Below the pieces are notes generated by a model, which saw nothing but the letters and a program-made list of their open reading frames with translations, was not told the DNA's origin and did not search any database. DNA of 64,000 nucleotides from Gaiellaceae bacterium (GTDB lineage: Bacteria > Actinomycetota > Thermoleophilia > Gaiellales > Gaiellaceae): assembly GCA_035651895.1 (NCBI GenBank), contig DASREW010000032.1, positions 18,584 through 82,583 of the forward strand, read 5' to 3'. Below, in pieces: positions 473-51,610 of the stretch. Within the stretch, counting starts at the first letter, position 1; every line of letters begins with the position of its first letter. A program made the position numbers and the translations under genes.

Positions 473-1458
473 TAGCCCTTGACCGCGCCGCCGGTGAGGC
501 CGGAGACGATCCAGCGCTGCAGGAACATGAAGAGGATCGTCACGGGCAGCGCCGCGAGCAGCGCACCGGCCGCGAACGGGCCCCAGACCTTGTCGTACTG
601 GTTGGAGATGAGCCCTTGCATACCGACCGGCAGCGTGAAGTGCCCGGTCGTCTGCAGGATGGCCGATGCGATCACGAACTCGTTCAGCGTGAAGACGAAT
701 GAGATCAGCGCGACGACGCACAGCACCGGCGCCGCAAGGGGCAGGACGACGCCCCAGAAGATCTGCGCCGCCGTGGCCCCGTCGACTCGCGCCGACTCGT
801 CCAGCTCCGAGGGAATCGTGTCGAAGAAGCCCTTCATCAGCCACGCCTGCACGCCCATCGAGCCGCCCAGGTAGACGACGATCACCGCGGCCAGCTGGTT
901 GAGGCCGATCTCCGGGAAGATGTTGCCGACGTTGTAGATGATCAGGTAGATCGCTGCGACCGCGACGAACTGCGGGAACATCTGGATCAGCAGCAGCGTC
1001 ATCATCCCGAGCCGGCGGCCCTTGAAGCGGAACCGGCTGAACGCGTACGCGGCGAGCGCGCCGAGCATCGTCGTGAAGATCGCCGTCAGGCCGGCGACGA
1101 GCATCGAGTTGACGAACCAGTGGAGGTACGGGACGTCGAGCTTGCCGCCGCTCGTTCCGACCACCTTGTTGTGGAAGAGCGCCCCGAAGTTGTGCAACGT
1201 CGTGTGGGTCGGGATCACCTGTGCGTCCTGGATCGTGTTGTCCGCGTTGAACGCCGACGACACGATGTAGACCACCGGGAACAGCGCGATCACCGCCGCG
1301 GCGATCGCGACCACGTGCCGCCACCAGGTGTCCTTGAGCTTCAGGCGCTTGCGCGGCCTGCCCACGCGCGTGTCCGCGAGCGTCGCCGTCACACGCGGCG
1401 TCGTGATCACCGTGGGTGTGAGATCCGCCTCGCTCATATCCGCTCCGGCGCCGGCCAA
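472..1458 (-). CDS. malG: Maltose/maltodextrin ABC transporter permease, MalG-like
   Basis: 328 aa, multi-TM, with the EAA loop DESARVDGATAAQIFWGVVLPLAAP. It follows the MalF-like gene in the same operon. The start could instead be the internal ATG at 1437. Confidence 0.85.
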   Translation of the reverse strand: MAGAGADMSEADLTPTVITTPRVTATLADTRVGRPRKRLKLKDTWWRHVVAIAAAVIALFPVVYIVSSAFNADNTIQDAQVIPTHTTLHNFGALFHNKVVGTSGGKLDVPYLHWFVNSMLVAGLTAIFTTMLGALAAYAFSRFRFKGRRLGMMTLLLIQMFPQFVAVAAIYLIIYNVGNIFPEIGLNQLAAVIVVYLGGSMGVQAWLMKGFFDTIPSELDESARVDGATAAQIFWGVVLPLAAPVLCVVALISFVFTLNEFVIASAILQTTGHFTLPVGMQGLISNQYDKVWGPFAAGALLAALPVTILFMFLQRWIVSGLTGGAVKG

Positions 1459-1501
1459 GCCGGCGCCTCCGCTCCTTGTGAGCCTCCGTCGAGCCTACGG
1501 T

Positions 1502-3136
<1,635 letters not shown>

Positions 3137-19288: not shown

Positions 19289-19521
19289 TTAGCCTGAGGT
19301 TGGATGGTCGATGCCACGATTGCGTGTGCGCGGCTGCGCGGCCTGGCCGCGTTCGACCGCGTGCGGTTCAGCCGCACCGGCGAAGCCGGCACGTCCGAGC
19401 CGCGCGCTTCGGCACGTCGCACCGGCTCCGATAGCGCTGCTATCGCAGCCGGCACGCCGCACCGCCCGAACACGCCCAGTCCGCCCCCCGCGACAGACGC
19501 CCTCGTGGCATCGCCCATCTG

Positions 19522-24835: not shown

Positions 24836-25309
24836 ATGGACGGCGTCGTGTTCGTCGAGATCCCGGCCGGATCGCGCAACAAGTACGAGTGGGACGAGGA
24901 GCTCGGCGGCATCGCGCTCGACCGGCGGCTCTTCACGTCGATGAGCTACCCGGCCGACTACGGCTTCATCGAAGGCACGCTCGCCGAGGACGGCGACCCG
25001 CTGGACGCGCTCGTGCTCGTCGGCGACCCGACGTTCCCCGGCTGCCGGATCCGTGTCCGCGCCGTCGGCGTGTTCCACATGGCCGACGAGAAGGGCCCCG
25101 ACGAGAAGGTGCTCTGCGTGCCGCTCAAGGATCCGTCCTGGAGCGAGATCTCCGACATCCACGACGTCCCCGCGCAGCTCCGGAACGAGATCGAGCACTT
25201 CTTCCAGGTCTACAAGGACCTCGAGGACAAGAAGACCGAGACGTGGGGATTCGGCAACAGATCGGAGGCACAGGCCGTGATCGAGGCGGCGCGCAGCCGC
25301 GCCTCCTGA
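24836..25309 (+). CDS. ppa: Inorganic pyrophosphatase (family I)
   Basis: 157 aa from ATG 24836: VEIPAGSRNKYEWD...YGFIEGTLAEDGDPLDALVL. Confidence 0.92.
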   Translation: MDGVVFVEIPAGSRNKYEWDEELGGIALDRRLFTSMSYPADYGFIEGTLAEDGDPLDALVLVGDPTFPGCRIRVRAVGVFHMADEKGPDEKVLCVPLKDPSWSEISDIHDVPAQLRNEIEHFFQVYKDLEDKKTETWGFGNRSEAQAVIEAARSRAS

Positions 25310-25428: not shown

Positions 25429-26247
25429 GTGTCTTCAGCAGTTGCAGCAGTCGACGTACGTGACCTGAACAAGGTCTTCAGCAGGCGCAAGGGCCTCTTC
25501 GGCCGGCGCAGCCGTGCCGCCTTGAACGGGGTCGGTTTGCGCATCGAGCGCGGCGAGTGCGTGGCCATCCTCGGCCAGAACGGCTCGGGGAAGTCGACGC
25601 TCGTCCGCCTGCTCTCGACGCTGCTCCTGCCGGACGGCGGCACCGCGAAGGTGTTCGGCTACGACGTGTTCAAGGAGCCGCGCGCGGTGCGGCGGCTCGT
25701 CAACCGCGTGTCGGTCGAAGCGAGCTTCTTCAAGAAGATGAGCGCGGCGGAGAACCTCTCGTACGCCGCGCGGTTCTACGGCATGGGGCCCGGCGAGACG
25801 CGGCGGGAGATCCCGCGCATCCTCGAGCGCGTCGGCTTCCCGGCCGCGCGGCGCAACGAGGCGATGGAGAACCTGTCCCGCGGCATGCAGCAGAAGGTCG
25901 CGCTCGCGCGTGCCCTGCTCACCTCGCCGGTCCTGCTGCTCCTCGACGAGCCGACGACGGGTCTCGATCCGCGGTCGAAGCAAGAGGTGCAGTCGTTCAT
26001 CCGCGAGATCCGCCAGCGGCACGACGCGACGATCCTGCTCTGCACGCACGACATGAAGGAGGCGGAAGAGCTTGCCGATCGCGTCGGGCTGCTCGACAAG
26101 GGAGTGCTGCTCTTCCTCGAGCCGGTGCCGCAGGTGCTCGCGCGCTACGGCGTCGCGACGCTTGAGGAGGCGTTCTTCGCCGCGACCGGGCGGACGTTCG
26201 AGGACGAGAAGACGGAAGAGGACGAGGACCGGGAGGTGTTCGCATGA
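25429..26247 (+). CDS. ABC transporter ATP-binding protein (ABC-2/DrrA-like exporter ATPase)
   Basis: Walker A GQNGSGKST, signature LSRGMQQKVALA, Walker B LLLLDEPTTGLD. AAGGAG lies 6 nt upstream of GTG 25429. Confidence 0.9.
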   Translation: MSSAVAAVDVRDLNKVFSRRKGLFGRRSRAALNGVGLRIERGECVAILGQNGSGKSTLVRLLSTLLLPDGGTAKVFGYDVFKEPRAVRRLVNRVSVEASFFKKMSAAENLSYAARFYGMGPGETRREIPRILERVGFPAARRNEAMENLSRGMQQKVALARALLTSPVLLLLDEPTTGLDPRSKQEVQSFIREIRQRHDATILLCTHDMKEAEELADRVGLLDKGVLLFLEPVPQVLARYGVATLEEAFFAATGRTFEDEKTEEDEDREVFA

Positions 26248-26316
26248 GCGTAGGCTCGACGGAGCTCATCAATAGCGGAGCCGCCGGCTTGGCCGGCGGT
26301 GGAGCGGAGTCAGTGA
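26248..26316 (+). repeat. REP-like GTAG-hairpin element, copy A (69 nt)
   Basis: GCGTAGGCTCGACGGAGCT...AGCGGAG-CCGCCGGC-TTG-GCCGGCGG-TGGAGCGGAGTCAGTGA. Tandem with copy B, differing at 3 positions. Confidence 0.85.
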
Positions 26317-26384
26317 GCGTAGGCTCGACGGAGCTCATCGATAGCGGAGCCGCCGGCTTGGACGGCGGTGGAGCGGAGTCATGA
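26317..26384 (+). repeat. REP-like GTAG-hairpin element, copy B (68 nt), ending on the permease start codon
   Basis: Same unit as copy A. Its 3' GGAGCGGAG tail sits just before ATG 26381. Confidence 0.85.
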
Positions 26385-27223
26385 CGGTCGATGTGACGCA
26401 GGCGTATACGCGGCGCCGTGTCGTGCGTGACGAGCTCGTCGGGCTCTACGGCGTCGTCGAGCGCAACCTGTATCTGACGAAGCGCTACCTGCTCTGGGAC
26501 CTCGCGTTCCTGCTCTGGACGGTCGCGAACACGCTCACGATCGTGTTCATCGCGCGCGGCGTGGGCATCTCGCCGACCGAGCGGAACGCGCTGGAGACGA
26601 AGCTGCTCGTCGGCGGCGTCATCTGGGCGTTCCTCGGGATCATCTTCGAGATCGTCACCGAGACGGTCGCCTGGGAGCGCTGGGAAGGAACGATCGAGTA
26701 CACCTTCATGGCGCCGGTGTCGCGCCCGGTCCACCTGATCGGCATGGGCGTGTATTCGGTGCTCTACGGCCTCGTGCGCGCAGGGCTCGTGTTCCTCGCG
26801 GTCGTCGCGTTCATCGGCATCCACGTGCCGCACGCGAACTACGGCGCAGCGGTGGCGCTGCTCGCGATCGCGTCGATCTCGTTCATCGGCGTCGGGATGA
26901 TGACGGCCGTGCTGCCGCTCATCTCGCCGGAGAAGGGCACGCAGCTCGGCTTCGTCGCGCAGGGGCTGATGCTCGTCGTCTCGGGCGTCTACTACCCGGT
27001 CAGCGTGCTGCCCGGCTGGATGCAGTGGGTGGCGAAGATCTCGCCGGCGACCTACGCGCTGCGCGGCAACCGCGCCTCGATCCTGTCGGGTGCCGGCGTC
27101 GCGTGGGCGGACGTCTGGCCGCTGCTCGTGATCGGCTCGATCTCGATTCCGCTCGGGCTCTTCGTCTTCAAGGCCGGAGAGCGGTACGCGAAGCAGCGCG
27201 GGAAGCTGAAGCGGTCCGGCTAG
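26381..27223 (+). CDS. ABC-2 type transporter permease
   Basis: 280 aa, six predicted TM helices, partner of the upstream ATPase. Confidence 0.85.
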   Translation: MTVDVTQAYTRRRVVRDELVGLYGVVERNLYLTKRYLLWDLAFLLWTVANTLTIVFIARGVGISPTERNALETKLLVGGVIWAFLGIIFEIVTETVAWERWEGTIEYTFMAPVSRPVHLIGMGVYSVLYGLVRAGLVFLAVVAFIGIHVPHANYGAAVALLAIASISFIGVGMMTAVLPLISPEKGTQLGFVAQGLMLVVSGVYYPVSVLPGWMQWVAKISPATYALRGNRASILSGAGVAWADVWPLLVIGSISIPLGLFVFKAGERYAKQRGKLKRSG

Positions 27224-27241
27224 ATCGGTTAGGGTCGGCGC

Positions 27242-28606
27242 ATGGGAATGATCGAGAGCAAGGACCGGGCGACCAGCGATCCCGAGGCGCGCAAGCGCGC
27301 CCTCAAGCAGATGGAGAAGGACGCGATCGAGTACGTCCTCTTCTGGTTCACGGACATCGAAGGGCACCTGAAGAGCTTCGCGATCACTCCGTCGGAGATC
27401 GAGGGCGCGCTCGACGACGGCATGGGCTTCGACGGCTCGTCGATCACGGGCTTCAACGCGATCGAAGAGTCCGACATGGTTGCGATCCCCGACCCGTCGA
27501 CCTACCGGCTGATGCCGACGCGCGACGGCGAGGCGAAGGTCGGGCGCATGATCTGCGACGTCGTCACGCCGGACGGGCAGCCCTACGAGGGCGATCCGCG
27601 CTACGTCCTTCGCCGCGCCCTCGAGCGCATGCAGTCGCTCGGCTTCGACACCTTCAACGTCGGCCCCGAGCTCGAGTACTTCCTCTTCCGCGACAAGGGC
27701 GGCACCGAGACGCTCGACGAAGGCGGGTACTTCGCGATGACCGCGCTCGACGCGGCGACCGAGCTGCGCAACGAGACGATCCGCGCGCTCGAGTCGATGG
27801 GCATCGGCATCGAGTACCACCACCACGAGGTCGCGCCGTCGCAGCACGAGATCGACATGCGCTACGCCTCGGCGCTCGACATGGCCGACCAGACGGTGAC
27901 GTACCGCCTAGTCGTCAAGGAGGTCGCCGCGAAGCACGGCGTGTACGCGACGTTCATGCCCAAGCCGCTGTTCGGCGAGAACGGCTCCGGCATGCACACC
28001 CACATGTCGCTCTTCAAGGAAGGGCGCAACCAGTTCTTCGACGGCTCCGATCCGTACCACCTGTCACCGGTCGGCAAGCAGTTCATCGCCGGCCTGCTCA
28101 AGCACGCGCGCGAGCTGTCGGGCGTCTTTGCGCAGTGGGTGAACTCGTACAAGCGGCTCGTGCCCGGCTATGAGGCGCCCGTCTACGTCGCGTGGTCGCA
28201 GCGGAACCGCTCGGCGCTGATCCGCATCCCGCTCTACAAGCCCGGGTCCGAGCAGGCGACGCGCGCCGAGATCCGTTGTCCCGATCCGGCGTGCAACCCG
28301 TACCTCACGTTCGCCGCGCTGCTGCACGCAGGCCTCGAGGGGATCGAGAAGGGCTACGAGCTGCCGGCGCCGATGGAGACGAACCTATACCACCTCACCG
28401 CGGACGAGCGGGCCGAGCGCGGGATCGTCTCGCTGCCGCACACGCTCGGCGAGGCGATCGACGAGTTCGCCGCGAGCGAGCTGATGCGGCGCGCCTTCGG
28501 CGACCACATCTTCGACAGCTACGTGAAGCTCAAGCGCGCCGAGTGGGACGACTACCGCGTCCAGCTCACCCAGTGGGAGCTCGACCGGTACCTCGGCGTG
28601 CTCTGA
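27242..28606 (+). CDS. glnA: Glutamine synthetase type I
   Basis: 454 aa with the motifs FDGSSI, NGSGMHTHMSLF and NSYKRLVPGYEAP. Confidence 0.9.
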   Translation: MGMIESKDRATSDPEARKRALKQMEKDAIEYVLFWFTDIEGHLKSFAITPSEIEGALDDGMGFDGSSITGFNAIEESDMVAIPDPSTYRLMPTRDGEAKVGRMICDVVTPDGQPYEGDPRYVLRRALERMQSLGFDTFNVGPELEYFLFRDKGGTETLDEGGYFAMTALDAATELRNETIRALESMGIGIEYHHHEVAPSQHEIDMRYASALDMADQTVTYRLVVKEVAAKHGVYATFMPKPLFGENGSGMHTHMSLFKEGRNQFFDGSDPYHLSPVGKQFIAGLLKHARELSGVFAQWVNSYKRLVPGYEAPVYVAWSQRNRSALIRIPLYKPGSEQATRAEIRCPDPACNPYLTFAALLHAGLEGIEKGYELPAPMETNLYHLTADERAERGIVSLPHTLGEAIDEFAASELMRRAFGDHIFDSYVKLKRAEWDDYRVQLTQWELDRYLGVL

Positions 28607-28618
28607 GAAGACGCCGCG

Positions 28619-28675
28619 GCGTAGGCTCGACGGAGCCGCGCAGCAAATCCGTGCCGGCTCGGCCGGTGCGGATTT
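28619..28675 (+). repeat. REP-like GTAG-hairpin element, copy C; its second hairpin (28645-28675) probably serves as a bidirectional terminator
   Basis: GCGTAGGCTCGACGGAGCC core, then AAATCCGTGCCGGC-TCG-GCCGGTGCGGATTT (14-bp stem with G-U pairs). It lies between the convergent glnA and PRC-barrel genes. Confidence 0.8.
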
Positions 28676-28928
28676 AGAGGAACGTCCGGATCGACTCGCG
28701 CTCGACGCGGAGCCCGATCACCTTGGCGCCGTTGTCGATCTGCTCGATCGAGTCGGCGGGCACGAGCCGGCGCCGGCGGGCGAAGAACCCGGAGCGCACG
28801 GAGAGCGCATCGGGACTCTCGGGGGAGGTGCCGTACATCGGGCACTCGACCTTGCCGACCACGCGGCCCCGGGCGTCAGCGACGAGGAAGCCGGCGGTGC
28901 TGCGGAGATCGATTGCGAGTGCGCTCAT
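28674..28928 (-). CDS. PRC-barrel domain protein
   Basis: 84 aa: LVADARGRVVGKVECPMYG...RRRRLVPADSIEQID, a PRC-barrel-like pattern. Confidence 0.65.
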   Translation of the reverse strand: MSALAIDLRSTAGFLVADARGRVVGKVECPMYGTSPESPDALSVRSGFFARRRRLVPADSIEQIDNGAKVIGLRVERESIRTFL

Positions 28929-28996
28929 GCGATGTCGAAGCTATTCCCCGTCTGCGAGGAAATACCTCGCCTCCCGTAAAACTTTTGTGAACCCGC

Positions 28997-29407
28997 TCAA
29001 GATCCCCATTTGCCCGACATCGCGAGCATGGCGACCGTGAGCAGCAGGAGGTAAACGCCGGAGAGCCCGGCGACGATACGGCCCGCGAGCGGCTTGCCGC
29101 TCCGTGACCACCACCAGGAGCAGAGCACGGCGGCGAGCAGGACGACGACGCCTGGCTCGAGCACGCCGTGGCCGATGCCGAGCCAGGTCGCCTTCGAGCT
29201 GCCGAGCCCTTCGTCGTGCTCGATCCAGTAGGCGCACCCGAGCGTCCAGGCCCAGGCGGGGAGCGCGACGATCAGGATTCGCACGGTCGCAGCGCGCAGC
29301 CCGGCCAGCGAGGTCACGAGTGCGGTCAGTACCGCGCCGAAGAGCGTCATCGCGCCGAGGACGTGCAGGAAGAGCGGCCAGAACGCGCGGCTGTAGGCGA
29401 GAAGCAT
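28997..29407 (-). CDS. Four-TM integral membrane protein (DUF2269-like), downstream paralog
   Basis: 136 aa from ATG 29407 (MLLAYSRAFWPLFLHVLGAMTLFGAV...). The start overlaps the upstream stop (TGATG). Confidence 0.65.
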   Translation of the reverse strand: MLLAYSRAFWPLFLHVLGAMTLFGAVLTALVTSLAGLRAATVRILIVALPAWAWTLGCAYWIEHDEGLGSSKATWLGIGHGVLEPGVVVLLAAVLCSWWWSRSGKPLAGRIVAGLSGVYLLLLTVAMLAMSGKWGS

Positions 29408-29880
29408 CACGAGCCCGGCCTCCAGATCATCAGGACGAGGATCGCGATCGTCGCGACACCGGCGAGGTAGGAGACGGCGGTGCCTTTCGGGTCGCGAAGG
29501 AGGGCGCGCAGCTCCTCGGTCGAGGCGTCTCCGGCCGCGGCGAGCTGTTCGGCGAGCTTGCGTGCCCGCTCCTGGTGACGGCCGCCGACGCTGCCCAGCC
29601 AGCCGGAGACGGCCCAGAGGGCGAGCGCGATCCAGATCCAGGCGGCGCCGATCGAGAAGTGCAGCTCGTGCCAGAGCCAGATGCCGAACACGAGCGTCCC
29701 GGCGACGCCGACGAAGATCACCGGGAGGACGCGCTGGATCAGGCGGAGCAGGGTCGCCGAGTCGCTCGGCCGCTCCGCGCGGATCGCGAGCACGTTCAGG
29801 ATGCCCGCGGCCACCGACCCGCCCACGAAACAGAACGCCGCGGCGATGTGGAGCATCAGCAGCCACTGCGTCGTGGACAC
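29407..29880 (-). CDS. Four-TM integral membrane protein (DUF2269-like)
   Basis: 157 aa from GTG 29880 (VSTTQWLLMLHIAAAFCFVGGSVAAG...). The upstream part of the 206-aa track ORF looks non-coding. Confidence 0.65.
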   Translation of the reverse strand: MSTTQWLLMLHIAAAFCFVGGSVAAGILNVLAIRAERPSDSATLLRLIQRVLPVIFVGVAGTLVFGIWLWHELHFSIGAAWIWIALALWAVSGWLGSVGGRHQERARKLAEQLAAAGDASTEELRALLRDPKGTAVSYLAGVATIAILVLMIWRPGS

Positions 29881-29905
29881 GGCGCGAGCGTACCCTTGTC
29901 CACGG

Positions 29906-31321
29906 ATGGACACGCGCGAGCGGCACCTGCGCCTGCTGACCGAGACGATCGAAGCGGTCAACTCGACACTGGACCTGCAGGAGGTGCTGTCGCTGGTCGC
30001 AACGAAAGTGCCGGACGCGCTCGGCACCGACGGCTGTTTCGTCTACCTCTACGACGAACGCGCGGACGAGCTGATCCTGCGCGCGACCCACGGGACGCCG
30101 ATCGACGCGATGAGCCGCCGGCCGCGCATGCGTCCCGGCGAGGGGATCACGGGCACCGCCGCGGCTGCGCGGGCCCCGGTGATGCTCGAGTCGCAGGCGC
30201 ACCTCGATCCGCGCTTCAAGCACTTTCCGAACCTGCCGGAGGACGAGTACGAGTCGATTCTCGCGGTGCCGATCCTGACGCGCGACGGGACGCTCGAAGG
30301 AGCGCTCAACGTGCGCACGCGCCTCCCGCGCGCGTTCGGCGAGGACGAGGTCGACCTGCTGCTCGCGATCGCGGCGCAGGTGGCGCAATCGATCGAGCAC
30401 GCGAAGCTCTACGAGGAGGCGCAGCGCCGCGTGACCGAGCTCGAGGCGCTCGCGCGGATCTCGGAGGCGGTCTCGGACTCGCTGTACCTCGAGGAGTCAC
30501 TCGAGGCGATCGTCAAGACCACGATGGACGCGCTCGAGGCGACGGGTGCGGCGCTCGTCCTCGACGACGGCCGCATCGCCTGGCCGGAGGGCGTCGCGTC
30601 GACGCATGCGATCCGGCAGCCGCTGCGGTGGCGCGGCCGCCAGATCGGAGAGCTCGTCGCCGACCGCGAGACGCCGTTCACGGACGTCGAACGCGAGCTG
30701 CTCGCATCGATCGCGACGCACGCCGCCGTTGCGCTCGAGCACGGCCGCGCGGTGATGCGCGGCGTGCTCGCGCAAGAGATCCATCACCGTGTGAAGAACA
30801 ACCTGCAGACGGTGGCGTCGCTGCTGCGTCTGCAGGCGCGGTCCGACGACGCCATCGACCCGCGCGAAGCACTCGAGCATTCGGTCAACCGGATCCTGGC
30901 GATCGCCGCCGTGCACGAGCTGCTCACCGAGCGGCGCGAGGAGGACGTCGAGCTCGCGGATCTGATCGACCGGCTGCGCGCGATGCTCGTGCAGGGCGTC
31001 GGGGGCGGCAAGGACGTCAGCGCCGAGCTCGAGGCGGTGACGCTTTCGGGCGCGCGCGCCACGGCGCTCGCGCTCGTCTTCGCCGAGCTGCTGCAGAACG
31101 CGCTCGAGCACGGCGGTGGCCGCGTACGCGTGGAGCTGCAGCGGCGGAACGGCGACATCGTGCTGGCGATCGCCGACGACGGCGTGGGTGTGCGCGAAGG
31201 CGTCGCGGCCGGTACCGGCCTGTCGATCGTGCGCGCGCTCGTGCGCGACGAGCTTCGCGGCACGCTCGACCTGACCTCAGGGCCGGGAACGCGCGCCGAG
31301 GTCGTCTTCCCGGTGACGTAG
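29906..31321 (+). CDS. pdtaS: GAF/PAS sensor histidine kinase of the PdtaS type (HisKA_2-like H-box)
   Basis: 471 aa from ATG 29906. GAF domain (LILRATHG...GEGITG), H-box AQEIHHRVKNNLQTVASLL, and an ATPase domain with LLQNALEHG, DDGVG and GTGLSIV. Confidence 0.85.
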   Translation: MDTRERHLRLLTETIEAVNSTLDLQEVLSLVATKVPDALGTDGCFVYLYDERADELILRATHGTPIDAMSRRPRMRPGEGITGTAAAARAPVMLESQAHLDPRFKHFPNLPEDEYESILAVPILTRDGTLEGALNVRTRLPRAFGEDEVDLLLAIAAQVAQSIEHAKLYEEAQRRVTELEALARISEAVSDSLYLEESLEAIVKTTMDALEATGAALVLDDGRIAWPEGVASTHAIRQPLRWRGRQIGELVADRETPFTDVERELLASIATHAAVALEHGRAVMRGVLAQEIHHRVKNNLQTVASLLRLQARSDDAIDPREALEHSVNRILAIAAVHELLTERREEDVELADLIDRLRAMLVQGVGGGKDVSAELEAVTLSGARATALALVFAELLQNALEHGGGRVRVELQRRNGDIVLAIADDGVGVREGVAAGTGLSIVRALVRDELRGTLDLTSGPGTRAEVVFPVT

Positions 31322-31816
31322 GACGCGGGCGCCGCGCGCGGTCGTGCGATAGACGGTCGACGGCGGCCGAGTCGGCCGCACCTCGCGCCGGACGAGCCGC
31401 GCGTCTTCGAGGTCGCGGAGCGCAAGCGCGAGCGCGCGCGGTGTCACGCCGGGGAGCGAGGCGCGCAGCTCGGAGAAGCGTCGCTCGTCGCGGAGCTCGG
31501 CGAGCACCGGCACCGACCATTTCCGGAGCAGCGTCTCCGCATTGCCGGCGGCGAGCACGCCGGCCGCCACCGGCGCGGCCCGCCGTCCTCGTGCGGTGAT
31601 CACGTACTCCGGTCGGAGCGGGTGGCCGTAACCGGGGTTCCGCGCAACGAGCTCGAGGTCGAGCAGCGCGTCGAGGGCGCGCCGCAGGGACTCCCGTCCG
31701 ACCCCGAGCGTGCGCTGCAGCTCGACGAAGCGGACACCCTTCCGCTCGGCGACGAGCGCCAGCGCCGGCGGCGCCCAGCGATGGTGAAAGAGGTCGATCA
31801 GCTCGCGGGTTGACAT
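31277..31816 (-). CDS. HxlR-type winged-helix regulator with two tandem HxlR-like halves
   Basis: Half 1 is HHRWAPPALALVAERKGVRFVELQRTLGV...EYVITARG and half 2 is LRKWSVPVLAELRDERRFSELRASLPGVT...VYRTTARG. I chose ATG 31816 because ATG 31846 would interlock with the divergent VOC start. Confidence 0.75.
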   Translation of the reverse strand: MSTRELIDLFHHRWAPPALALVAERKGVRFVELQRTLGVGRESLRRALDALLDLELVARNPGYGHPLRPEYVITARGRRAAPVAAGVLAAGNAETLLRKWSVPVLAELRDERRFSELRASLPGVTPRALALALRDLEDARLVRREVRPTRPPSTVYRTTARGARVLRHREDDLGARSRP

Positions 31817-31844
31817 AGAACACAACGAAGTATAAAAACGGGTC
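31817..31844. promoter_or_regulatory. AT-rich divergent promoter/operator region between the HxlR regulator and the VOC gene
   Basis: AGAACACAACGAAGTATAAAAACGGGTC is one of the very few AT-rich patches in the window. The function is inferred from position only. Confidence 0.3.
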
Positions 31845-32225
31845 ATGACGATCGACTACAACACCTCCAACTGCGTCATCTCGGTCGGCGTCTCCGACTA
31901 CGACCGGGCGCTCGCCTGGTATCGCGATTTGCTCGGCTTCACGCTCGAGTACGAGCTGTCCGAGTACGGCTGGTGCGAGCTGAAGACCCCCTTCGGCTTC
32001 AACATCGGCCTCGGCCAGACCGAGACGGTCACGCCGGGCAACATCACGCCGACGTTCGGAGTGAAGGACATCGACGCCGCCATCGCTTACCTGCGCGAGC
32101 ACGACGTGCAGGTCGAGGACTGGCACCAGGTCGGCGACATGGTGCGGCTCTCGACGTTCTACGACCCCGATGGAACCTCGTGGATGCTCGCCCAGGTGCT
32201 CGATCGGAAGGACGAGCGCGGATAG
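31845..32225 (+). CDS. Glyoxalase/bleomycin resistance/dioxygenase (VOC) family protein
   Basis: 126 aa: SVGVSDYDRALAWYRDLLGF...FYDPDGTSWML. Confidence 0.85.
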   Translation: MTIDYNTSNCVISVGVSDYDRALAWYRDLLGFTLEYELSEYGWCELKTPFGFNIGLGQTETVTPGNITPTFGVKDIDAAIAYLREHDVQVEDWHQVGDMVRLSTFYDPDGTSWMLAQVLDRKDERG

Positions 32226-32557
32226 AGCTCGAGTCGTATTCGCTCGTGCTCCTGCGGGCGGGTGTGGCGGCCGACGGCTTTGCCGACGCCGAGCTCGACC
32301 GGCTGCAGGCGGCGCACCTCGCGCATCTCGACGCCATGGCCGTGGCCGGGAAGCTGGTGGGCGCCGGGCCGTTCCGCGACCAGGCAGACGCGTCGCTGCG
32401 CGGGTTGTGCTTCTACGCGTGCGACCTCGACGAGGCGCGTGAGCTCGCCGAGCAGGATCCGGCGGTGCGCGCGGGCCGGTTGACGGTCGAGGCGATGACG
32501 TGGCTGACGCAGAAGGGCGCGGTGGCGTTCCACCCGGAAGCGCGCCGCGGGCGCTGA
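32222..32557 (+). CDS. YciI family protein (start codon unresolved)
   Basis: YciI-like sequence ELESYSLVLLRAG...AHLAHLDAMAVAGKLVGAGPF. Candidate starts are ATA 32222 (overlaps the VOC stop as ATAG, with GGAAGGA 9 nt upstream), GTG 32180, or GTG 32246. Confidence 0.7.
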   Translation: MELESYSLVLLRAGVAADGFADAELDRLQAAHLAHLDAMAVAGKLVGAGPFRDQADASLRGLCFYACDLDEARELAEQDPAVRAGRLTVEAMTWLTQKGAVAFHPEARRGR

Positions 32558-32561
32558 CGGC

Positions 32562-33116
32562 TTAGCCGGGCAGCCAGCCGTCGCGGTAGGCGACCAGACG
32601 GCTCTTGCCGAAGCGCGCGTACGCCTCCTTCGGCACGGTCGTCTCCGCAGCGACGCCTGCCCCGTGTCGAGTCGCGGCCTCGTCGACGGGGTACGCGCCC
32701 CAGTTCGGGCCGGTCGACGCTCCACGCGCACCGACCGCGAGCACGAGACAGGGCTCCGAGCCCGCCGCCACGATCGTGTGCCTGACGCCGGCGGGGCAGT
32801 GCACGAAGTCCCAGCGGCGCAGCGGCCGCTCCTCGCCCTCGATCACGAGCACGGCCTCACCGGCGAGCACGAGGAAGTCCTCCTGGTCTGCCTCCCAGTG
32901 GTACATCGACATCGGTTGGCCCGGCTCGAGCAGCGTGAGGTTCACCCCGAGCTGCTCGAACCCCGCCGCGCCCTCGATCCCGGCGCCCTCGAACTCGCAC
33001 AGCACGCCGCGTCCGGGACGCTCCCACCACTGCGTCTCGCGCGCGTTCACGACGAACCAGCCCTGCCCTTTCGGAACGAGGCCGTTCTCCGTCGGGACGA
33101 GCTCGGCCTCGGTCAG
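32562..33116 (-). CDS. Cupin domain protein (probable CTG start overlapping the upstream stop)
   Basis: Cupin core GQPMSMYHWEADQEDFLVLAGEA...VHCPAGVRHT. The frame stays open and protein-like (LTEAELVPTENGLVPKGQGWFV) upstream of the first canonical start, GTG 33050. Confidence 0.8.
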   Translation of the reverse strand: MTEAELVPTENGLVPKGQGWFVVNARETQWWERPGRGVLCEFEGAGIEGAAGFEQLGVNLTLLEPGQPMSMYHWEADQEDFLVLAGEAVLVIEGEERPLRRWDFVHCPAGVRHTIVAAGSEPCLVLAVGARGASTGPNWGAYPVDEAATRHGAGVAAETTVPKEAYARFGKSRLVAYRDGWLPG

Positions 33117-33373
33117 GCGCCCTGGTCCTCGAACGTGAAGTGGAAGTGGTCGTCGTGGGCGTGGACGCCCAGGATCTGGTCGGCGAGCACCTCCGCGGCG
33201 GCCGGGGCGAGGAACACCCGCGCGCCGTCCCGTTCGACGACTTCGTCGCCTTCATGCGGCTCGGACGCATCGTCGATCTGGAGCTCGATGCCGTCCTCGA
33301 CCTCTTCGGCCGTGACGCGCAACGGCCCGATCTGGATCAGCGCCTCCACCGCCTCATCCGCGATCTGCAGCAT
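33113..33373 (-). CDS. HesB/IscA-like small protein lacking the conserved cysteines
   Basis: 86 aa: MLQIADEAVEAL...GDEVVERDGARVFLAPAAAEVLADQIL, the family pattern as I recall it from actinobacterial HesB-like proteins. Confidence 0.6.
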   Translation of the reverse strand: MLQIADEAVEALIQIGPLRVTAEEVEDGIELQIDDASEPHEGDEVVERDGARVFLAPAAAEVLADQILGVHAHDDHFHFTFEDQGA

Positions 33374-33384
33374 CGTGCGAGTCT

Positions 33385-33957
33385 ATGTGCATGCGCATCC
33401 TGGTCGCGGAGGACGAGACGATCATCAGGCTCGATCTGCGGGACCTCCTCGAGCGCGCCGGGCACGAAGTCGCCGGTGAGGCGCGCGACGGCGAGGAGGC
33501 GGTCGCTCTCGCCCGCGAGCTCGAGCCGGACCTCGCGATCATGGACGTGAAGATGCCGCGGCTCGACGGGATCGACGCCGCGAAGCGGATCCTCGAAGAG
33601 CGGCCGCTGCCGATCGTGCTGCTCACCGCCTACGGCCAGCAGGAGCTCGTCGCGCGTGCGGTCGAGGCGGGTGTGTTCGGCTACCTCGTCAAGCCGTTTC
33701 GCGAGCAGGACCTCGTGCCGGCGATCGAGACCGCCCGGGCCCGGCACGCCGAGCTGCTCGCCGTGCGCGAGGAGGCCGACTCGCTCGCCGACGCTCTCGC
33801 AGCGCGCAAGGCGATCGAGCGCGCGAAGGGCCTGTTGATGGAGAAGGAGGGCCTGAGCGAGAAGGACGCCTTCGAGCGGCTGCGCAAGGCGAGCCAGGTG
33901 TCCGGGCGGCCGCTGAGGGTGATCGCGGAAGCCGTGATCGCTACGCTCGACCCGTGA
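33385..33957 (+). CDS. pdtaR: Response regulator with an ANTAR RNA-binding output domain (PdtaR)
   Basis: REC domain (ILVAEDE...DLAIMDVKMP...YLVKP) plus ANTAR (AIERAKGLLMEKEGLSEKDAFERLRKASQVSGRPLRVIAE). An alternative ATG lies at 33391. Confidence 0.9.
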   Translation: MCMRILVAEDETIIRLDLRDLLERAGHEVAGEARDGEEAVALARELEPDLAIMDVKMPRLDGIDAAKRILEERPLPIVLLTAYGQQELVARAVEAGVFGYLVKPFREQDLVPAIETARARHAELLAVREEADSLADALAARKAIERAKGLLMEKEGLSEKDAFERLRKASQVSGRPLRVIAEAVIATLDP

Positions 33958-34247
33958 CGCACACGATCACACCTCCGCGCGAGCGCACGCGCCGAAGCAG
34001 CGGCTCCGGCACCGGAGACGCGTGGCGCGTCGTCGTCCTGAACGACAACCACAACACGTTCGAGGGCGTCGCGTTCGCGCTCGCCCAGACCATCCCCGGC
34101 GTCGACTACGACAAGGGCATGGCGCTGGCGAACCGGATCCACACGACCGGGCAGGCGATCGTCTGGTCGGGCCATCGTGAGGCGGCCGAGCTCTACCACT
34201 CCCAGCTCGAGGGCTACGGGCTCACGCTTGCGCCGCTCGAACGCTGA
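33954..34247 (+). CDS. clpS: ATP-dependent Clp protease adaptor ClpS
   Basis: 97 aa: WRVVVLNDNHNTFEGVAFALAQTIPG...AIVWSGHREAAELY. The GTG start overlaps the pdtaR stop (GTGA). Confidence 0.88.
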   Translation: MTHTITPPRERTRRSSGSGTGDAWRVVVLNDNHNTFEGVAFALAQTIPGVDYDKGMALANRIHTTGQAIVWSGHREAAELYHSQLEGYGLTLAPLER

Positions 34248-34620
34248 GGACGGCATCCGCCGCGTCTTCGAAGCGTTCCGCGGCGGCGATCCGCGGGCGC
34301 TCTTCGACGTCATCGCCGAGGACGCGGTGTGGACGGTCAACGGCACGGTGCCGGTCGCCCAGGTGTACGAAGGACGCGCGCGGATCTTCGATCTCTTCCG
34401 CGAGACGCGTCGTCTCACCGGCGGCACCTATCTGTCGACCCTGCGCTGGTTTCTCGCCGACGGCGAGCACGCCGTCGCCGTCTACCGCGCGCAAGGTGCA
34501 CGCGAGGGGCGCGAGCTCGACATCGACCAGGTGCTCCTGATCGACCACGACGACGGCGTCTGGAAGCGCATCGTCGCCATCCCCTCCGACCCGCCGGCGT
34601 TCGAGGCGTTTTGGGCATGA
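34228..34620 (+). CDS. SnoaL-like / NTF2-superfamily protein (start uncertain)
   Basis: IRRVFEAFRGGDPRALFDVIAEDAVWTVNG... is typical SnoaL-like sequence. I chose TTG 34228; the track ATG 34177 would overlap clpS by 71 nt. Confidence 0.7.
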   Translation: MRRSNAEDGIRRVFEAFRGGDPRALFDVIAEDAVWTVNGTVPVAQVYEGRARIFDLFRETRRLTGGTYLSTLRWFLADGEHAVAVYRAQGAREGRELDIDQVLLIDHDDGVWKRIVAIPSDPPAFEAFWA

Positions 34621-34621
34621 G

Positions 34622-34684
34622 GCGTAGGCTTGACGGAGCCTCACAAAGAGCGGAGGTGCCGGCTTTGCCGGTGCCGGAGCGGAG
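34622..34684 (+). repeat. REP-like GTAG-hairpin element, copy D
   Basis: GCGTAGGCTTGACGGAGCC...AGCGGAG-GTGCCGGC-TTT-GCCGGTGCC-GGAGCGGAG. It starts just after the SnoaL-like gene stop (ATGA) and ends 1 nt before TTG 34686. Confidence 0.8.
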
Positions 34685-34685
34685 A

Positions 34686-35537
34686 TTGAAGATCGGGCTG
34701 CAGCTCCCGGAGGTGGAGCGCGACGTGCGGCGGGACGAGCTCGCTGCGATCGCGCGCGCCGGCGAGGAGCAGGGCTTCGACTCGCTCTGGGTCGGCGACC
34801 ACCTGCTCTACCGGGGCGACGGCCGCTCCGAGCGCGGCCCGTGGGACTGCTTCACCACGCTCGCGTGGCTCGCGGGGATCACGCAACGTGTCGAGCTCGG
34901 CCCGCTTGTCGCCTGCACGGCGTTCCACGAGCCGGGGATCATGGCTCGCATGTTCGCGGCGCTCGACGAGCTGTCGGGTGGCCGCGCGGTCGCCGCCGTC
35001 GGCGCCGGCTGGAACGTCACCGAGTTCGAGGCGTTCGGCATCCCCTTCGACCACCACGTGTCGCGGTTCGAGGAGGCGTTCGACATCGTGCGGCGTCTGC
35101 TTGCGGGCGAGCGCGTCACCTTTCACGGCCGCTTCCACCACGTCGAGGACGCGGTGCTGCTGCCGCCGCCTGCGCGCCGGCCGAAGCTGATGATCGGCGC
35201 GAACAACCCGCGGATGCTGTCGATCACGCTGCCGCACGTCGATGCCTGGAACACGTGGTACTCCCGCTACGGGAACACCGTCGAGGGCTTTGCCGCCGAG
35301 AACGCGCGCGTCTCCGAGGCCGCCGAGCGCGCGGGGCGCGACCCGGCCGGCATCGAGCGCAGCGCCTGCGTCTGGGTGCAGGTGAGCGACGCGGGCGAGC
35401 GGCCGCGCGACGTGCCGCCGGTTCCGGCCGACCGTCTCCGCGACCATCTCGACGGCCTCGCCGAGGCCGGGGCGGACGAGACGATCCTCGTGCTCGACCC
35501 GATCACGGAGCACGCAGTGCGTAGTCTTAGCCTGTGA
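34686..35537 (+). CDS. Luciferase-like monooxygenase (LLM class, possibly F420-dependent) oxidoreductase
   Basis: (M)KIGLQLPE...GFDSLWVGDHLLY is a typical LLM N-terminus. TTG 34686 has GGAG 6 nt upstream. In-frame alternatives are GTG 34656 and ATG 34617. Confidence 0.8.
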   Translation: MKIGLQLPEVERDVRRDELAAIARAGEEQGFDSLWVGDHLLYRGDGRSERGPWDCFTTLAWLAGITQRVELGPLVACTAFHEPGIMARMFAALDELSGGRAVAAVGAGWNVTEFEAFGIPFDHHVSRFEEAFDIVRRLLAGERVTFHGRFHHVEDAVLLPPPARRPKLMIGANNPRMLSITLPHVDAWNTWYSRYGNTVEGFAAENARVSEAAERAGRDPAGIERSACVWVQVSDAGERPRDVPPVPADRLRDHLDGLAEAGADETILVLDPITEHAVRSLSL

Positions 35538-50050: not shown

Positions 50051-50919
50051 TCGAAGACTCGTGGACCGGCGAGGACACGACGGTCGCAGAGATCGAGCGC
50101 GAGCTCGCCCGCCTGCGCTACGAGTCGTCGAGCGAAGGCTCGCAGCCGAATCTGCGCACGTCGGTGATGACGCACATCGCGTGGGTGCCGCCGCAGTGGC
50201 AGGTCGCCGCGGAGGAGACGCTCTCCGGGATGGCGGAGCGGCATCCGTCGCGCACGCTGCTGCTCGTGCCGAAGCCGGACGAGCCCGACGGGCTCGACGC
50301 GCTGGTCTCGATCCGCTGCTTCCCGGTCGGCGACCGGGCGATCTGCGGCGAGGTGGTCGAGCTCACGTTGCGCGGGACGCGAGCAGCGGCACCGGCGTCG
50401 ATCGTGCTGCCGCTCTTGATCTCGGACCTGCCGGTGTTCTGCCGCTGGCGCGGCGAGCCCGACTGGGACTCGGCGGAGCTCGACCAGCTGATCGGGGTCA
50501 TCGACCGGCTGATCGTCGACTCGACGGAGTGGGAGAAGCTGCCGGTGCCCTATGAACGGCTGGTGCAGCTCTTCGACCACGTCGTCGTGTCGGACATTGC
50601 GTGGGACCGCACCGAGCGGTGGCGCACGCTGCTCGCGTCGTTGTGGCCGGAGATCGGCTCGGTCGAGCGCGTGCGCGTCCACGGCACGGCCGCGCAGGCG
50701 TACCTGCTCGCCGGCTGGCTGCGTTCGCGCCTCGGTCACGACCTGGAGGTGGAGATCGACGAGCACGAGACGCTCGAAGGCGTCGACCTCGACGGCAAGC
50801 CGGCGAAGTTCCCTCCCGGCAGACCGCCCGGCGCGAGCGATGTCCTCTCCGCGCAGCTCGACCGCTTCGCCCGCGACCGCGTCTACGAGGACGCGGTGCG
50901 CGCTGCCGTCGGCGTCTGA
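50035..50919 (+). CDS. opcA: Glucose-6-phosphate dehydrogenase assembly protein OpcA
   Basis: 294 aa, immediately after zwf and overlapping it by 16 nt. OpcA-like sequence LRTSVMTHIAW...LPVFCRWRGEP. Confidence 0.85.
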   Translation: MAPTLIEDSWTGEDTTVAEIERELARLRYESSSEGSQPNLRTSVMTHIAWVPPQWQVAAEETLSGMAERHPSRTLLLVPKPDEPDGLDALVSIRCFPVGDRAICGEVVELTLRGTRAAAPASIVLPLLISDLPVFCRWRGEPDWDSAELDQLIGVIDRLIVDSTEWEKLPVPYERLVQLFDHVVVSDIAWDRTERWRTLLASLWPEIGSVERVRVHGTAAQAYLLAGWLRSRLGHDLEVEIDEHETLEGVDLDGKPAKFPPGRPPGASDVLSAQLDRFARDRVYEDAVRAAVGV

Positions 50920-51610
50920 CAGCAGTCAGACACCTGTCTGACACACGCGACCGTGTCTTCTCTGCGCCGATTGTGTGAACGCGCTCGACGCGACCGCCGG
51001 GCTCCGGCACCGTGGCGGGATGGCTCCGCCTCGACTCGAGATCCCCGGCGCGATCTATCACATCAACAGCAAGGCAGTGCACGGAGCGAAGTTGTTCGTC
51101 GACGACAGCGACCGTTTCCTCTTTCTTCGGTTGTTGAAGCGTGAGGCGATCCGAAGTGACTGGTGCGTCCTCACGTACTCGCTGATGACCACGCACTTCC
51201 ATCTCCTATTGCGCCTCGAGAAAGCGTCCCTGAGCAGCGGCTTCCACGCTCTCAACTCGCACTACGCGCGGCTGTACAACCGCCGGCACGACCGGCGCGG
51301 CGCTCTGTGGCAGCGCCGCTACTTCGACTCCATCGTCGAGACCGAGCGACATCTCTTCGAGGCGGTGCGCTACATCGCACTGAATGCACCACGGGCCAGG
51401 ATCTGCAGTGACGCGCACGAGTGGCCATGGTGTAGCTACGGCGCTGCGGTCGGTCTCGCGCCGGCCGATCCGATCGTCAACGAGCGAGAGCTCCTGCGCC
51501 TCTTCGGGACACGTCCACGTGACGCACGACGGGCGTTGCGCAGGTGGGTCGAGAGTGCCGATCCGCGCTTCACTCCGAGTCAGACACGAACCTGACAGCT
51601 GTCAGACGCC
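50911..51610 (+). mobile_element. IS200/IS605-like or RAYT cassette: Y1 transposase gene bracketed by 29-nt imperfect inverted repeats built from GTCTGAC/GTCAGAC heptamers
   Basis: Left repeat 50914-50942 is GTCTGACAGCAGTCAGACACCTGTCTGAC. The reverse complement of the right repeat 51579-51607 is GTCTGACAGCTGTCAGGTTCGTGTCTGAC (24/29 identical). The outermost 13 nt, GGCGTCTGACAGC, are a perfect inverted repeat (50911-50923 / 51598-51610). Confidence 0.75.
51020..51595 (+). CDS. Y1 (HUH) transposase, IS200-like / REP-associated tyrosine transposase (RAYT)
   Basis: MAPPRLEIPGAIYHINSKAVHG. HUH motif in TTHFHLLLR and catalytic Tyr region AVRYIALNAPRA. I prefer ATG 51020 over the track GTG 50975. 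Confidence 0.8.
   Translation: MAPPRLEIPGAIYHINSKAVHGAKLFVDDSDRFLFLRLLKREAIRSDWCVLTYSLMTTHFHLLLRLEKASLSSGFHALNSHYARLYNRRHDRRGALWQRRYFDSIVETERHLFEAVRYIALNAPRARICSDAHEWPWCSYGAAVGLAPADPIVNERELLRLFGTRPRDARRALRRWVESADPRFTPSQTRT

Follow-up and report, generated by a model that had tools for sequence, protein, structure and literature searches.

A family of short repeats was analysed in a 64-kb stretch of DNA from a Gaiellaceae bacterium (69.9% G+C), i.e., the whole stretch examined here, called the window. The repeat stands at gene junctions and is recognised by a 19-nt core, GCGTAGGCTYGACGGAGCY, which matches exactly at 26248, 26317, 28619 and 34622, all on the plus strand (copies A, B, C and D, respectively). 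These four sense copies had been reported in an earlier reading made without database searches (the sequence-only reading), and the exact matches are confirmed. A fifth copy (E), missed by that reading, lies on the minus strand, with its core at 1482-1500 and 2 mismatches. Five core matches are thus present in the window vs. 0.43 expected by chance, and none of 100 shuffles reached five. A covariance-model scan of the whole window, with filters off, gave exactly these five copies, scoring 44-86 bits, besides one solo P2-like hairpin. Rfam 15 gave no match in the whole window at gathering thresholds (the best permissive match has E = 0.38 and 14.8 bits vs. a 35-bit cutoff), and a tRNA/tmRNA scan of the window found none.

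A unit consists, in this order, of a 5' arm, a 16-nt core, a 3' arm complementary to the first (together stem P1), a linker AGCGGAGG, a second hairpin P2, the motif GGAGCGG, a spacer of 5-6 nt and a start codon. Copies A and B form a head-to-tail pair with a 69-nt period (26244-26384, plus strand), which separates an ABC ATPase gene (end at 26247) from an ABC-2 permease gene (ATG 26381). In copy A, the core (26249-26264) is flanked by the P1 arms TGAG (26245-26248) and CTCA (26265-26268) and followed by P2 (26280-26300) and the tail GGAGCGGAG (26301-26309). In copy B, the core is located at 26318-26333, P2 at 26349-26369 (one mismatch) and the same tail at 26370-26378, where it is the Shine-Dalgarno (SD) sequence of ATG 26381. 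A single small open reading frame (mini-ORF) of 46 codons runs across A and B: its ATG at 26244 overlaps the upstream TGA and its own TGA (26382-26384) overlaps the downstream ATG.

Copy E is a complete unit (1434-1505, minus strand, 83.6 bits) between the genes of a MalF-like and a MalG-like ABC permease. Its core, i.e., the 16-nt loop of P1, lies at 1484-1499, the P1 arms are TGAAC and GCTCA (4 of the 5 positions paired), P2 is found at 1447-1467 and an SD-like tail, GGAGCGGAT, at 1438-1446. The mini-ORF has 23 codons (MNRRLDGGSQGAEAPAWPAPERI, then stop). Its ATG (1505-1503) overlaps the upstream TGA (1504-1502); at the other end, its TGA (1436-1434) and the downstream ATG (1437-1435) likewise overlap.

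Copy D (34617-34688, plus strand, 85.7 bits) is inserted between a SnoaL-like gene (stop at 34618-34620) and a luciferase-like monooxygenase gene (TTG 34686). The core is at 34623-34638, the P1 arms TGAGG and CCTCA at 34618-34622 and 34639-34643, P2 at 34655-34675 and the SD tail at 34676-34684; the minimum-free-energy fold yields both P1 and P2. As in the A+B pair and copy E, an ATG (34617) overlaps the upstream TGA. Because copy D measures 69 nt and not 68 nt, this ATG is in frame with the monooxygenase gene, and the mini-ORF enters that gene. Gene callers may therefore annotate on the monooxygenase a 23-residue N-terminal extension, MRRRLDGASQRAEVPALPVPERR, derived from the element.

Copy C (28607-28673, plus strand, 49 bits) is a variant, designated C-type. 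It occupies the entire gap from the glnA stop codon (28604-28606) to the stop codon of a convergent ORF of 84 residues (28674-28676). The core (28620-28635) stands between the P1 arms CGCGG and CCGCG, P2 is lengthened to 14 bp (28645-28658 with 28662-28675), and there is neither an SD tail nor a mini-ORF. In the scan of the family described below, such long-P2 copies are 3 of 158, copy C included. One of them belongs to a 113-nt tandem duplication in locus L066 (minus strand, locus coordinates 1537-1725); it has a 13-bp P2 and no SD tail, and the duplication also includes the 3' end of a gene on the opposite strand.

All the window copies are in sense orientation relative to the adjoining gene(s). 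The cumulative GC skew climbs monotonically through the window and does not reverse from copy E to the copies on the plus strand; orientation thus follows transcription, not replication, and replication direction was rejected as its cause. The sequence-only reading had also assigned a ribosome-binding role to GGAGCGGAG at the end of copies A, B and D. The motif starts at 26301, 26370 and 34676. The last two stand 2 nt before ATG 26381 and 1 nt before TTG 34686, in agreement with this role; the first stands ahead of unit B and not of a gene.

The family was then sought in a collection containing one genome per species, the pattern being the core plus the apex of P2. At least 119 loci were obtained from at least about 92 assemblies, with 163 core matches in the loci listed and the window taken together. 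Among the matches listed, the hosts are metagenome-assembled genomes (MAGs) of Gaiellaceae, Gaiella, Gaiellales, Thermoleophilia or unclassified Actinomycetota, with one exception. This exception, locus L099 (contig JBLMYA010000042.1), is binned as a Verrucomicrobiota MAG, a label that is probably a binning error rather than a sign of horizontal spread. No copies were found in viral contigs or plasmids. In a literature search, the core string occurred in no paper, and for Gaiella combined with repeat terms none of the papers listed contained the word Gaiella.

Unit length is 65-69 nt. Tandem head-to-tail arrays are common (a 68-nt period in 9 cases and a 69-nt period in 11) and contain up to six units. 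Clustered copies are all head-to-tail or nested on one strand. Degenerate or decayed copies are rare. Copy density varies sharply from one related lineage to another, 300 kb of orthologous loci containing 4 copies and the 64-kb window 5.

A variable stem of 4-5 bp, P1, closes the 16-nt core CGTAGGCTCGACGGAG (CGUAGGCUCGACGGAG), which is thus a conserved loop or bulge. This stem was analysed on a gapless alignment anchored on the core, a MAFFT alignment of whole units having broken the 3' arm of P1 with gaps. The arms vary and yet remain complementary: TGAG/CTCA, GAGC/GCTC, GCGG/CCGC, CCGG/CCGG, GCGC/GCGC, GCGA/TCGC and CCAG/CTGG. Of 157 copies, 118 form an unbroken run of 4 or more pairs, as against 3 if the partner is displaced by 2 nt. 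The covariation score of P1 is 0.653 (145 distinct copies) vs. 0.193 for shuffled and at most 0.126 for slid partners, and none of 500 shuffles was as high. In the same 145 copies, each of the four inner pairs is formed in 83-95% of cases and uses 5-6 standard pair types. Covariation among repeat copies reflects in part the amplification of subfamilies; still, more than 15 types of stem exist and all are paired. Usually, the stop codon of the upstream gene is located 5 or 4 nt ahead of the core, within the 5' arm of P1.

The first hairpin of the sequence-only reading (GGCTY-GACG-GAGCC) was a different one. It is present in the window copies, as claimed; over the family, its outer pair (14-25) fails in 35% of copies and no two-sided changes are seen. 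As a conserved helix it was thus replaced by P1, and only the inner CUC/GAG stretch of 3 bp may form inside the loop. This triplet is invariant family-wide, so that covariation is uninformative there. The claim of a second GC-rich hairpin whose stem varies and stays paired is borne out: P2 is a 9-bp GC helix with 97% of cells paired family-wide, and its four basal pairs covary (25 double-change cells vs. 3.7 in shuffles). Because of G.U pairs, P2 pairs more fully as sense strand (97.1%) than as antisense strand (88.7%). Folding of single sequences gave z-scores from -2.2 to -3.5 for four window units and -0.8 for locus L013. In some subfamilies, a short competing hairpin associates the 5' arm with GGCUC of the core. 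P2 is followed by GGAGCGG(G/A), and the distance from GGAG to the start codon peaks at 5-6 nt, i.e., the canonical Shine-Dalgarno distance.

Gene context could be assessed for 102 arrays. The elements stand between two genes on their own strand in 75 of them, ahead of a sense gene where the gap is divergent in 7 and behind one where it is convergent in 5; only 4 are antisense to both neighbours. The sequence-only reading had described a dispersed family lying at gene junctions and oriented with transcription, and this description agrees with the number of loci and with the ratio of 75 to 4. Absence of further copies, absence of conserved pairing and random orientation or position, which that reading had named as outcomes contrary to its own view, were each looked for and none was observed.

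Among the 75 co-directional arrays, the start codon of the mini-ORF overlaps the upstream stop codon as NTGA in 57. The overlap exists at both ends in 38, where the mini-ORF also ends on the downstream start codon, and the modal length of the mini-ORF is 23 codons. With the usual 68-nt period, the TGA of the mini-ORF overlaps the downstream ATG. The TAG of the core is itself the upstream stop codon in five arrays. Besides, 7 of the 75 arrays are fused in frame to the gene downstream, and 11 are entered by the upstream ORF.

These fusions could suggest a repeated peptide-coding module, i.e., a short motif of protein tails conserved at the protein level, since some copies are in frame within proteins (the permease N-terminus in loci L142, L164, L165 and L188, and the 11 upstream ORFs). 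However, both open frames of the core are in use to about the same extent (35 and 31 times, the third frame containing TAG) and they encode unrelated peptides, SVGSTE and RRLDG. Conservation tracks base pairing and not codons, and most copies are intergenic. Since both frames are used, the peptide is not what is conserved, and a peptide-coding module is hardly credible. Conservation of nucleotides and structure agrees with the sequence-only reading, which had proposed it at the nucleotide or RNA level from the two frames of the window copies (SVGSTE and RRRLDG); these two frames are confirmed.

Another explanation is that of a cis-acting RNA module selected by the host: the loop would be bound by an RNA-binding protein of the cell, by an RNase or by the ribosome, the module would tune intercistronic expression or mRNA stability, and copies would be kept for this function. 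Several of the properties described above agree with it, namely: (i) the strong covariation of P1 and P2; (ii) the overwhelmingly sense orientation; (iii) the better pairing of P2 on the sense strand; (iv) the small number of decayed copies; (v) the well-spaced SD brought by the element. Moreover, the 14-bp C-type hairpin between convergent genes resembles a terminator or a stabiliser.

In the window, A and B occupy a junction (ATPase to permease) that is without the element in 73 of its 77 orthologues from metagenomes. Plain 4-nt overlaps are seen in the closest of the empty ones, e.g., GGCATGACGACGGTCGAC (GTGTTGGCATGACGACGGTCGAC) in locus L130. The filled junction of the window reads GTGTTCGCATGA (GCATGA), then two units of 69 nt, then GTCATGACGGTCGAT (TCATGACGGTCGAT), and ATGA is repeated at both ends. 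In four relatives (L142, L164, L165 and L188), the same junction contains one copy of a different subfamily, in frame in the N-terminal tail of the permease, which becomes MTAT-GVGSTEPARSAGTGFAGAGA-RTRATLRQ vs. MTAIGASAGARRRATVRQ in the empty form. These four relatives represent an independent gain at this junction. Three other metagenomic relatives (L160, L186 and L195) carry unrelated inserts of 59-148 nt at the orthologous junction, that of L160 with palindromes of the GGGAAACC...GGTTTCCC type. Small elements thus seem to have landed repeatedly at the ATPase-to-permease junction.

The site upstream of the ppa gene gives a second comparison. In the window it is empty: the target ATGG (24836-24839, plus strand) is the start codon region of a pyrophosphatase-like gene (MDGVVFVEIP...). 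It is also empty in 10 relatives (...ATGGACGGC) and filled in loci L092, L016 and L049; in L092, ATGG is found on both sides of the insert. A duplication of a 4-nt target is present, as ATGA...ATGA at A/B and as ATGG...ATGG in L092. The site of copy C is empty in locus L121, where the convergent stop codons overlap directly (GTGCTCTAGAGAAACG). The insert in the window is about 72 nt long, begins with TGAG and gives glnA a new stop codon. A longer target duplication (about 10 nt) was considered at copy C and not retained, the match being too imperfect to be called.

Finally, composites of the form P1-[P1-P2]-P2 were found at L029:5724, L048(-):926 and L102(-):3710. In these cases a complete unit of the CCGG-stem subfamily lies within the linker of another unit as a nested insertion.

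These results weigh against a module kept by the host for its function: most orthologous sites are empty and one junction shows independent gains, tandem amplification and nesting are seen, density differs strongly between close lineages, the adjoining genes are functionally unrelated, and there is no Rfam match. In addition, a selfish insert under purifying selection, or one recognised as single-stranded DNA, would also show sense bias and pairing. Selection by the host is thus an unlikely primary explanation, though more plausible than conservation as a peptide.

The repeat is probably a non-autonomous mobile element of the intercistronic type known from MIRUs (mycobacterial interspersed repetitive units), specific to Gaiellales/Thermoleophilia, inserted at start codons and built for translation to pass through it. 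The element proper would measure about 64 nt, to which a duplicated target of 4 nt is added; the typical target would be the ATGA stop/start overlap between two genes of an operon. Insertion leaves ATGN on both sides. The upstream ATG, placed on the upstream stop codon, opens a mini-ORF of about 23 codons closing on the downstream start codon. Units multiply locally into head-to-tail arrays, can nest, and can be absorbed in frame into protein tails. Ribosomes terminating on the upstream gene would re-initiate on the mini-ORF and melt P1 and P2; at the 3' ATGA they would stop and start anew on the downstream gene, aided by the element's own SD. Coupling across -4 overlaps is well documented (PMC12548453). 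An insertion would thereby be almost neutral, with survival limited to copies in sense orientation. A trans-acting factor would recognise the core displayed on P1 and move the element.

Several points weigh against this interpretation of the repeat as a mobile, translated insert. Translation of the mini-ORF and re-initiation are deduced from the DNA sequence. The perfect double overlap exists in only about half of the co-directional arrays, and copy C and other C-type or 5'-UTR (untranslated region) copies do not have this design. The coding strand was called by openness of the ORFs and periodicity of the third-position G+C content, which is a heuristic and not an annotation. The invariance of the core and of the P2 apex is partly forced by the search pattern, which required them. 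Empty and filled sites were compared between species (70-92% identity), where a precise loss is possible at each site. No transposase, terminal inverted repeats or other mobilisation machinery were identified. Lastly, the scarcity of degenerate relics and the high conservation of the core could also mean a function at the level of the host.

The fifth copy, P1, the mini-ORF with its NTGA overlaps and the evidence for insertion at start codons, all absent from the sequence-only reading, together point to MIRU-like elements as the closest known kind. According to PMC3184786 and PMC12548453 (both citing Supply 1997), MIRUs measure 40-100 bp and are often arranged in tandem; they lie between cistrons, in the same orientation as these, and contain an ORF that is coupled at -4 on either side. 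Tetranucleotide direct repeats are described for them, as are sites both empty and filled. As far as these descriptions go, the likeness concerns: (i) unit size (65-69 nt) and head-to-tail arrays of up to six copies; (ii) location within operons and co-orientation, in 75 of 102 arrays; (iii) a small ORF overlapping the flanking stop and start codons, the A+B pair and copy E of the window fitting exactly; (iv) empty and filled sites with tetranucleotide repeats (ATGA at A/B; ATGG in L092, with 11 empty orthologous sites); (v) a GC-rich internal dyad symmetry, no transposase being known for MIRUs in these accounts. The family differs from MIRUs by its host, which is Gaiellales/Thermoleophilia and not Mycobacterium. 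It may also be set apart by a stem-closed loop of 16 nt, a freely covarying stem and a built-in SD tail, as well as by its conservation over at least about 92 assemblies of a collection with one genome per species. The Gaiellales element may thus be regarded as a new MIRU-like family rather than as a MIRU in the taxonomic sense, the resemblance observed being one of architecture.

The sequence-only reading had proposed a classical repetitive extragenic palindrome (REP) served by a REP-associated tyrosine transposase (RAYT) encoded nearby. A RAYT-like ORF of the Y1 type is indeed present at 50975-51595. It matches Pfam Y1_Tnp (1.4e-8), contains an HFH motif and scores 72.3 bits with NCBIfam REP_Tyr_transpos, under the curated cutoff of 80 bits. 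That it is flanked by a palindrome other than the element, as that reading had noted, is correct: GGCGTCTGACAGCAGTCAGAC lies at 50911-50942 and CCTGACAGCTGTCAGACGCC at 51590-51610. This palindrome begins with CGTC, like CGTC-tagged REPs (PMC3733652), and is found nowhere else in the window.

A GTAG-tagged REP copied by a RAYT (a Y1 HUH transposase), such as that of 50975-51595, has some features in its favour. GTAG stands immediately 5' to an invariant short palindrome, CUC-GACG-GAG, where 24 copies with C changed to U retain a G.U pair; a RAYT-like gene is present in the window; strand-specific hairpins and insertion beside a fixed tetranucleotide recall single-strand HUH transposition, as generally known for IS200/IS605. 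GTAG-tagged REPs likewise have GTAG beside a short palindrome, are GC-rich, extragenic and mostly located between unidirectional or convergent genes, contain G.T pairs suggesting a role at the RNA level, and occasionally have intragenic copies (PMC3733652). However, REPs are single imperfect palindromes of 20-40 bp with a stem of about 6-9 bp (PMC3733652), whereas the Gaiellales unit, at 65-69 nt, is of twice this length and contains two hairpins as well as an SD and a mini-ORF that is coupled. Its GTAG is invariant and lies 5' of a short inner palindrome but is internal, i.e., enclosed by the covarying P1 and not terminal. The palindrome beside it has only 3 invariant bp, the next pair being that which fails in 35% of copies. 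Arrays are head-to-tail, without inverted dimers. Element copies do not flank the RAYT-like ORF, from which the nearest one is about 16 kb away; instead, the different palindrome (GTCTGACAGCWGTCAGAC) flanks it on both sides and is found only there. A search of 199 loci (about 1.2 Mb) detected no Y1 homologue. The element disagrees with a classical REP in its length, in how many hairpins it has, in the length of the stem, in the organisation of dimers and in the flanking of the RAYT, and this origin is improbable, though less so than a peptide-coding module. A Y1 enzyme may nevertheless act in trans on the element.

Other families of small repeats share part of these properties. Rickettsia palindromic elements (RPEs), attributed to a report by Ogata et al. 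in 2000, are said to be palindromic mobile repeats inserted in frame in genes and translated as extra peptide segments. The Gaiellales family also has copies in frame within proteins. RPEs are longer (about 100-150 bp) and mainly intragenic, whereas the present family is mainly intercistronic, with in-frame copies only in protein tails. Correia/NEMIS and enterobacterial repetitive intergenic consensus (ERIC) sequences are small non-autonomous repeats, co-transcribed with their flanking genes, that form RNA hairpins and can alter the expression of neighbours. They have terminal inverted repeats, target duplications (TA or other) and no coupled mini-ORF. Inspection of the ends of the Gaiellales unit (5' GCCGTAGGCTC vs. 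the reverse complement of the 3' end, GCCCGCTCCCG) revealed no terminal inverted repeats, and the target is ATGN at start codons. Thus, among the properties that define miniature inverted-repeat transposable elements (terminal inverted repeats plus a duplication), only the duplication of 4 nt is present.

There is also a small chance, about the same as that of a host-selected module, that the loop displayed on its stem is the site of the trans-acting factor and that the family is more than selfish DNA, namely a portable cassette of translational coupling (stop, mini-ORF, SD, restart), by which Gaiellales would join or re-tune the genes of their operons. Such a cassette might spread in a strand-specific manner, through single-stranded DNA or by an RNA-mediated route, with the start codon as target. 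If true, this would imply a new mechanism of mobilisation and target selection, provide a natural experiment in modular operon engineering, and could illuminate how MIRUs move.

Tuberculosis strains have for decades been typed by MIRUs, whose movement and role are still unsettled. In the literature search, no other repeat was found to enter at start codons and to span the gap by a mini-ORF coupled in translation. The finding of such a design in an independent family, from an order of actinobacteria that is distant and largely uncultured, and with a clean anatomy (covarying stems, conserved loop, own SD, ATGN duplications), suggests that it is a general solution for near-neutral insertion in operons. 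The hundreds of copies, spread over at least about 92 assemblies, are comparative material both for finding the mobilising factor and for testing the coupling of termination and re-initiation. In practice, they will confuse gene callers by giving spurious N-terminal extensions, fused ORFs and 'hypothetical proteins' of 23 residues. The arrays are potential variable-number tandem repeat (VNTR) markers for Gaiellales populations.

Two minor observations concern incomplete units. The array at L057:1407-1579 has a period shortened to 60 nt, and its last unit is truncated (27 bits). In the window, a solo hairpin, CGGACGTGCCGGCTTCGCCGGTGCG, is found on the minus strand at 19373-19397. Its match to the element model is confined to P2 (20.9 bits, E = 0.005), and it could be either the remnant of a copy or a GC hairpin formed by chance.

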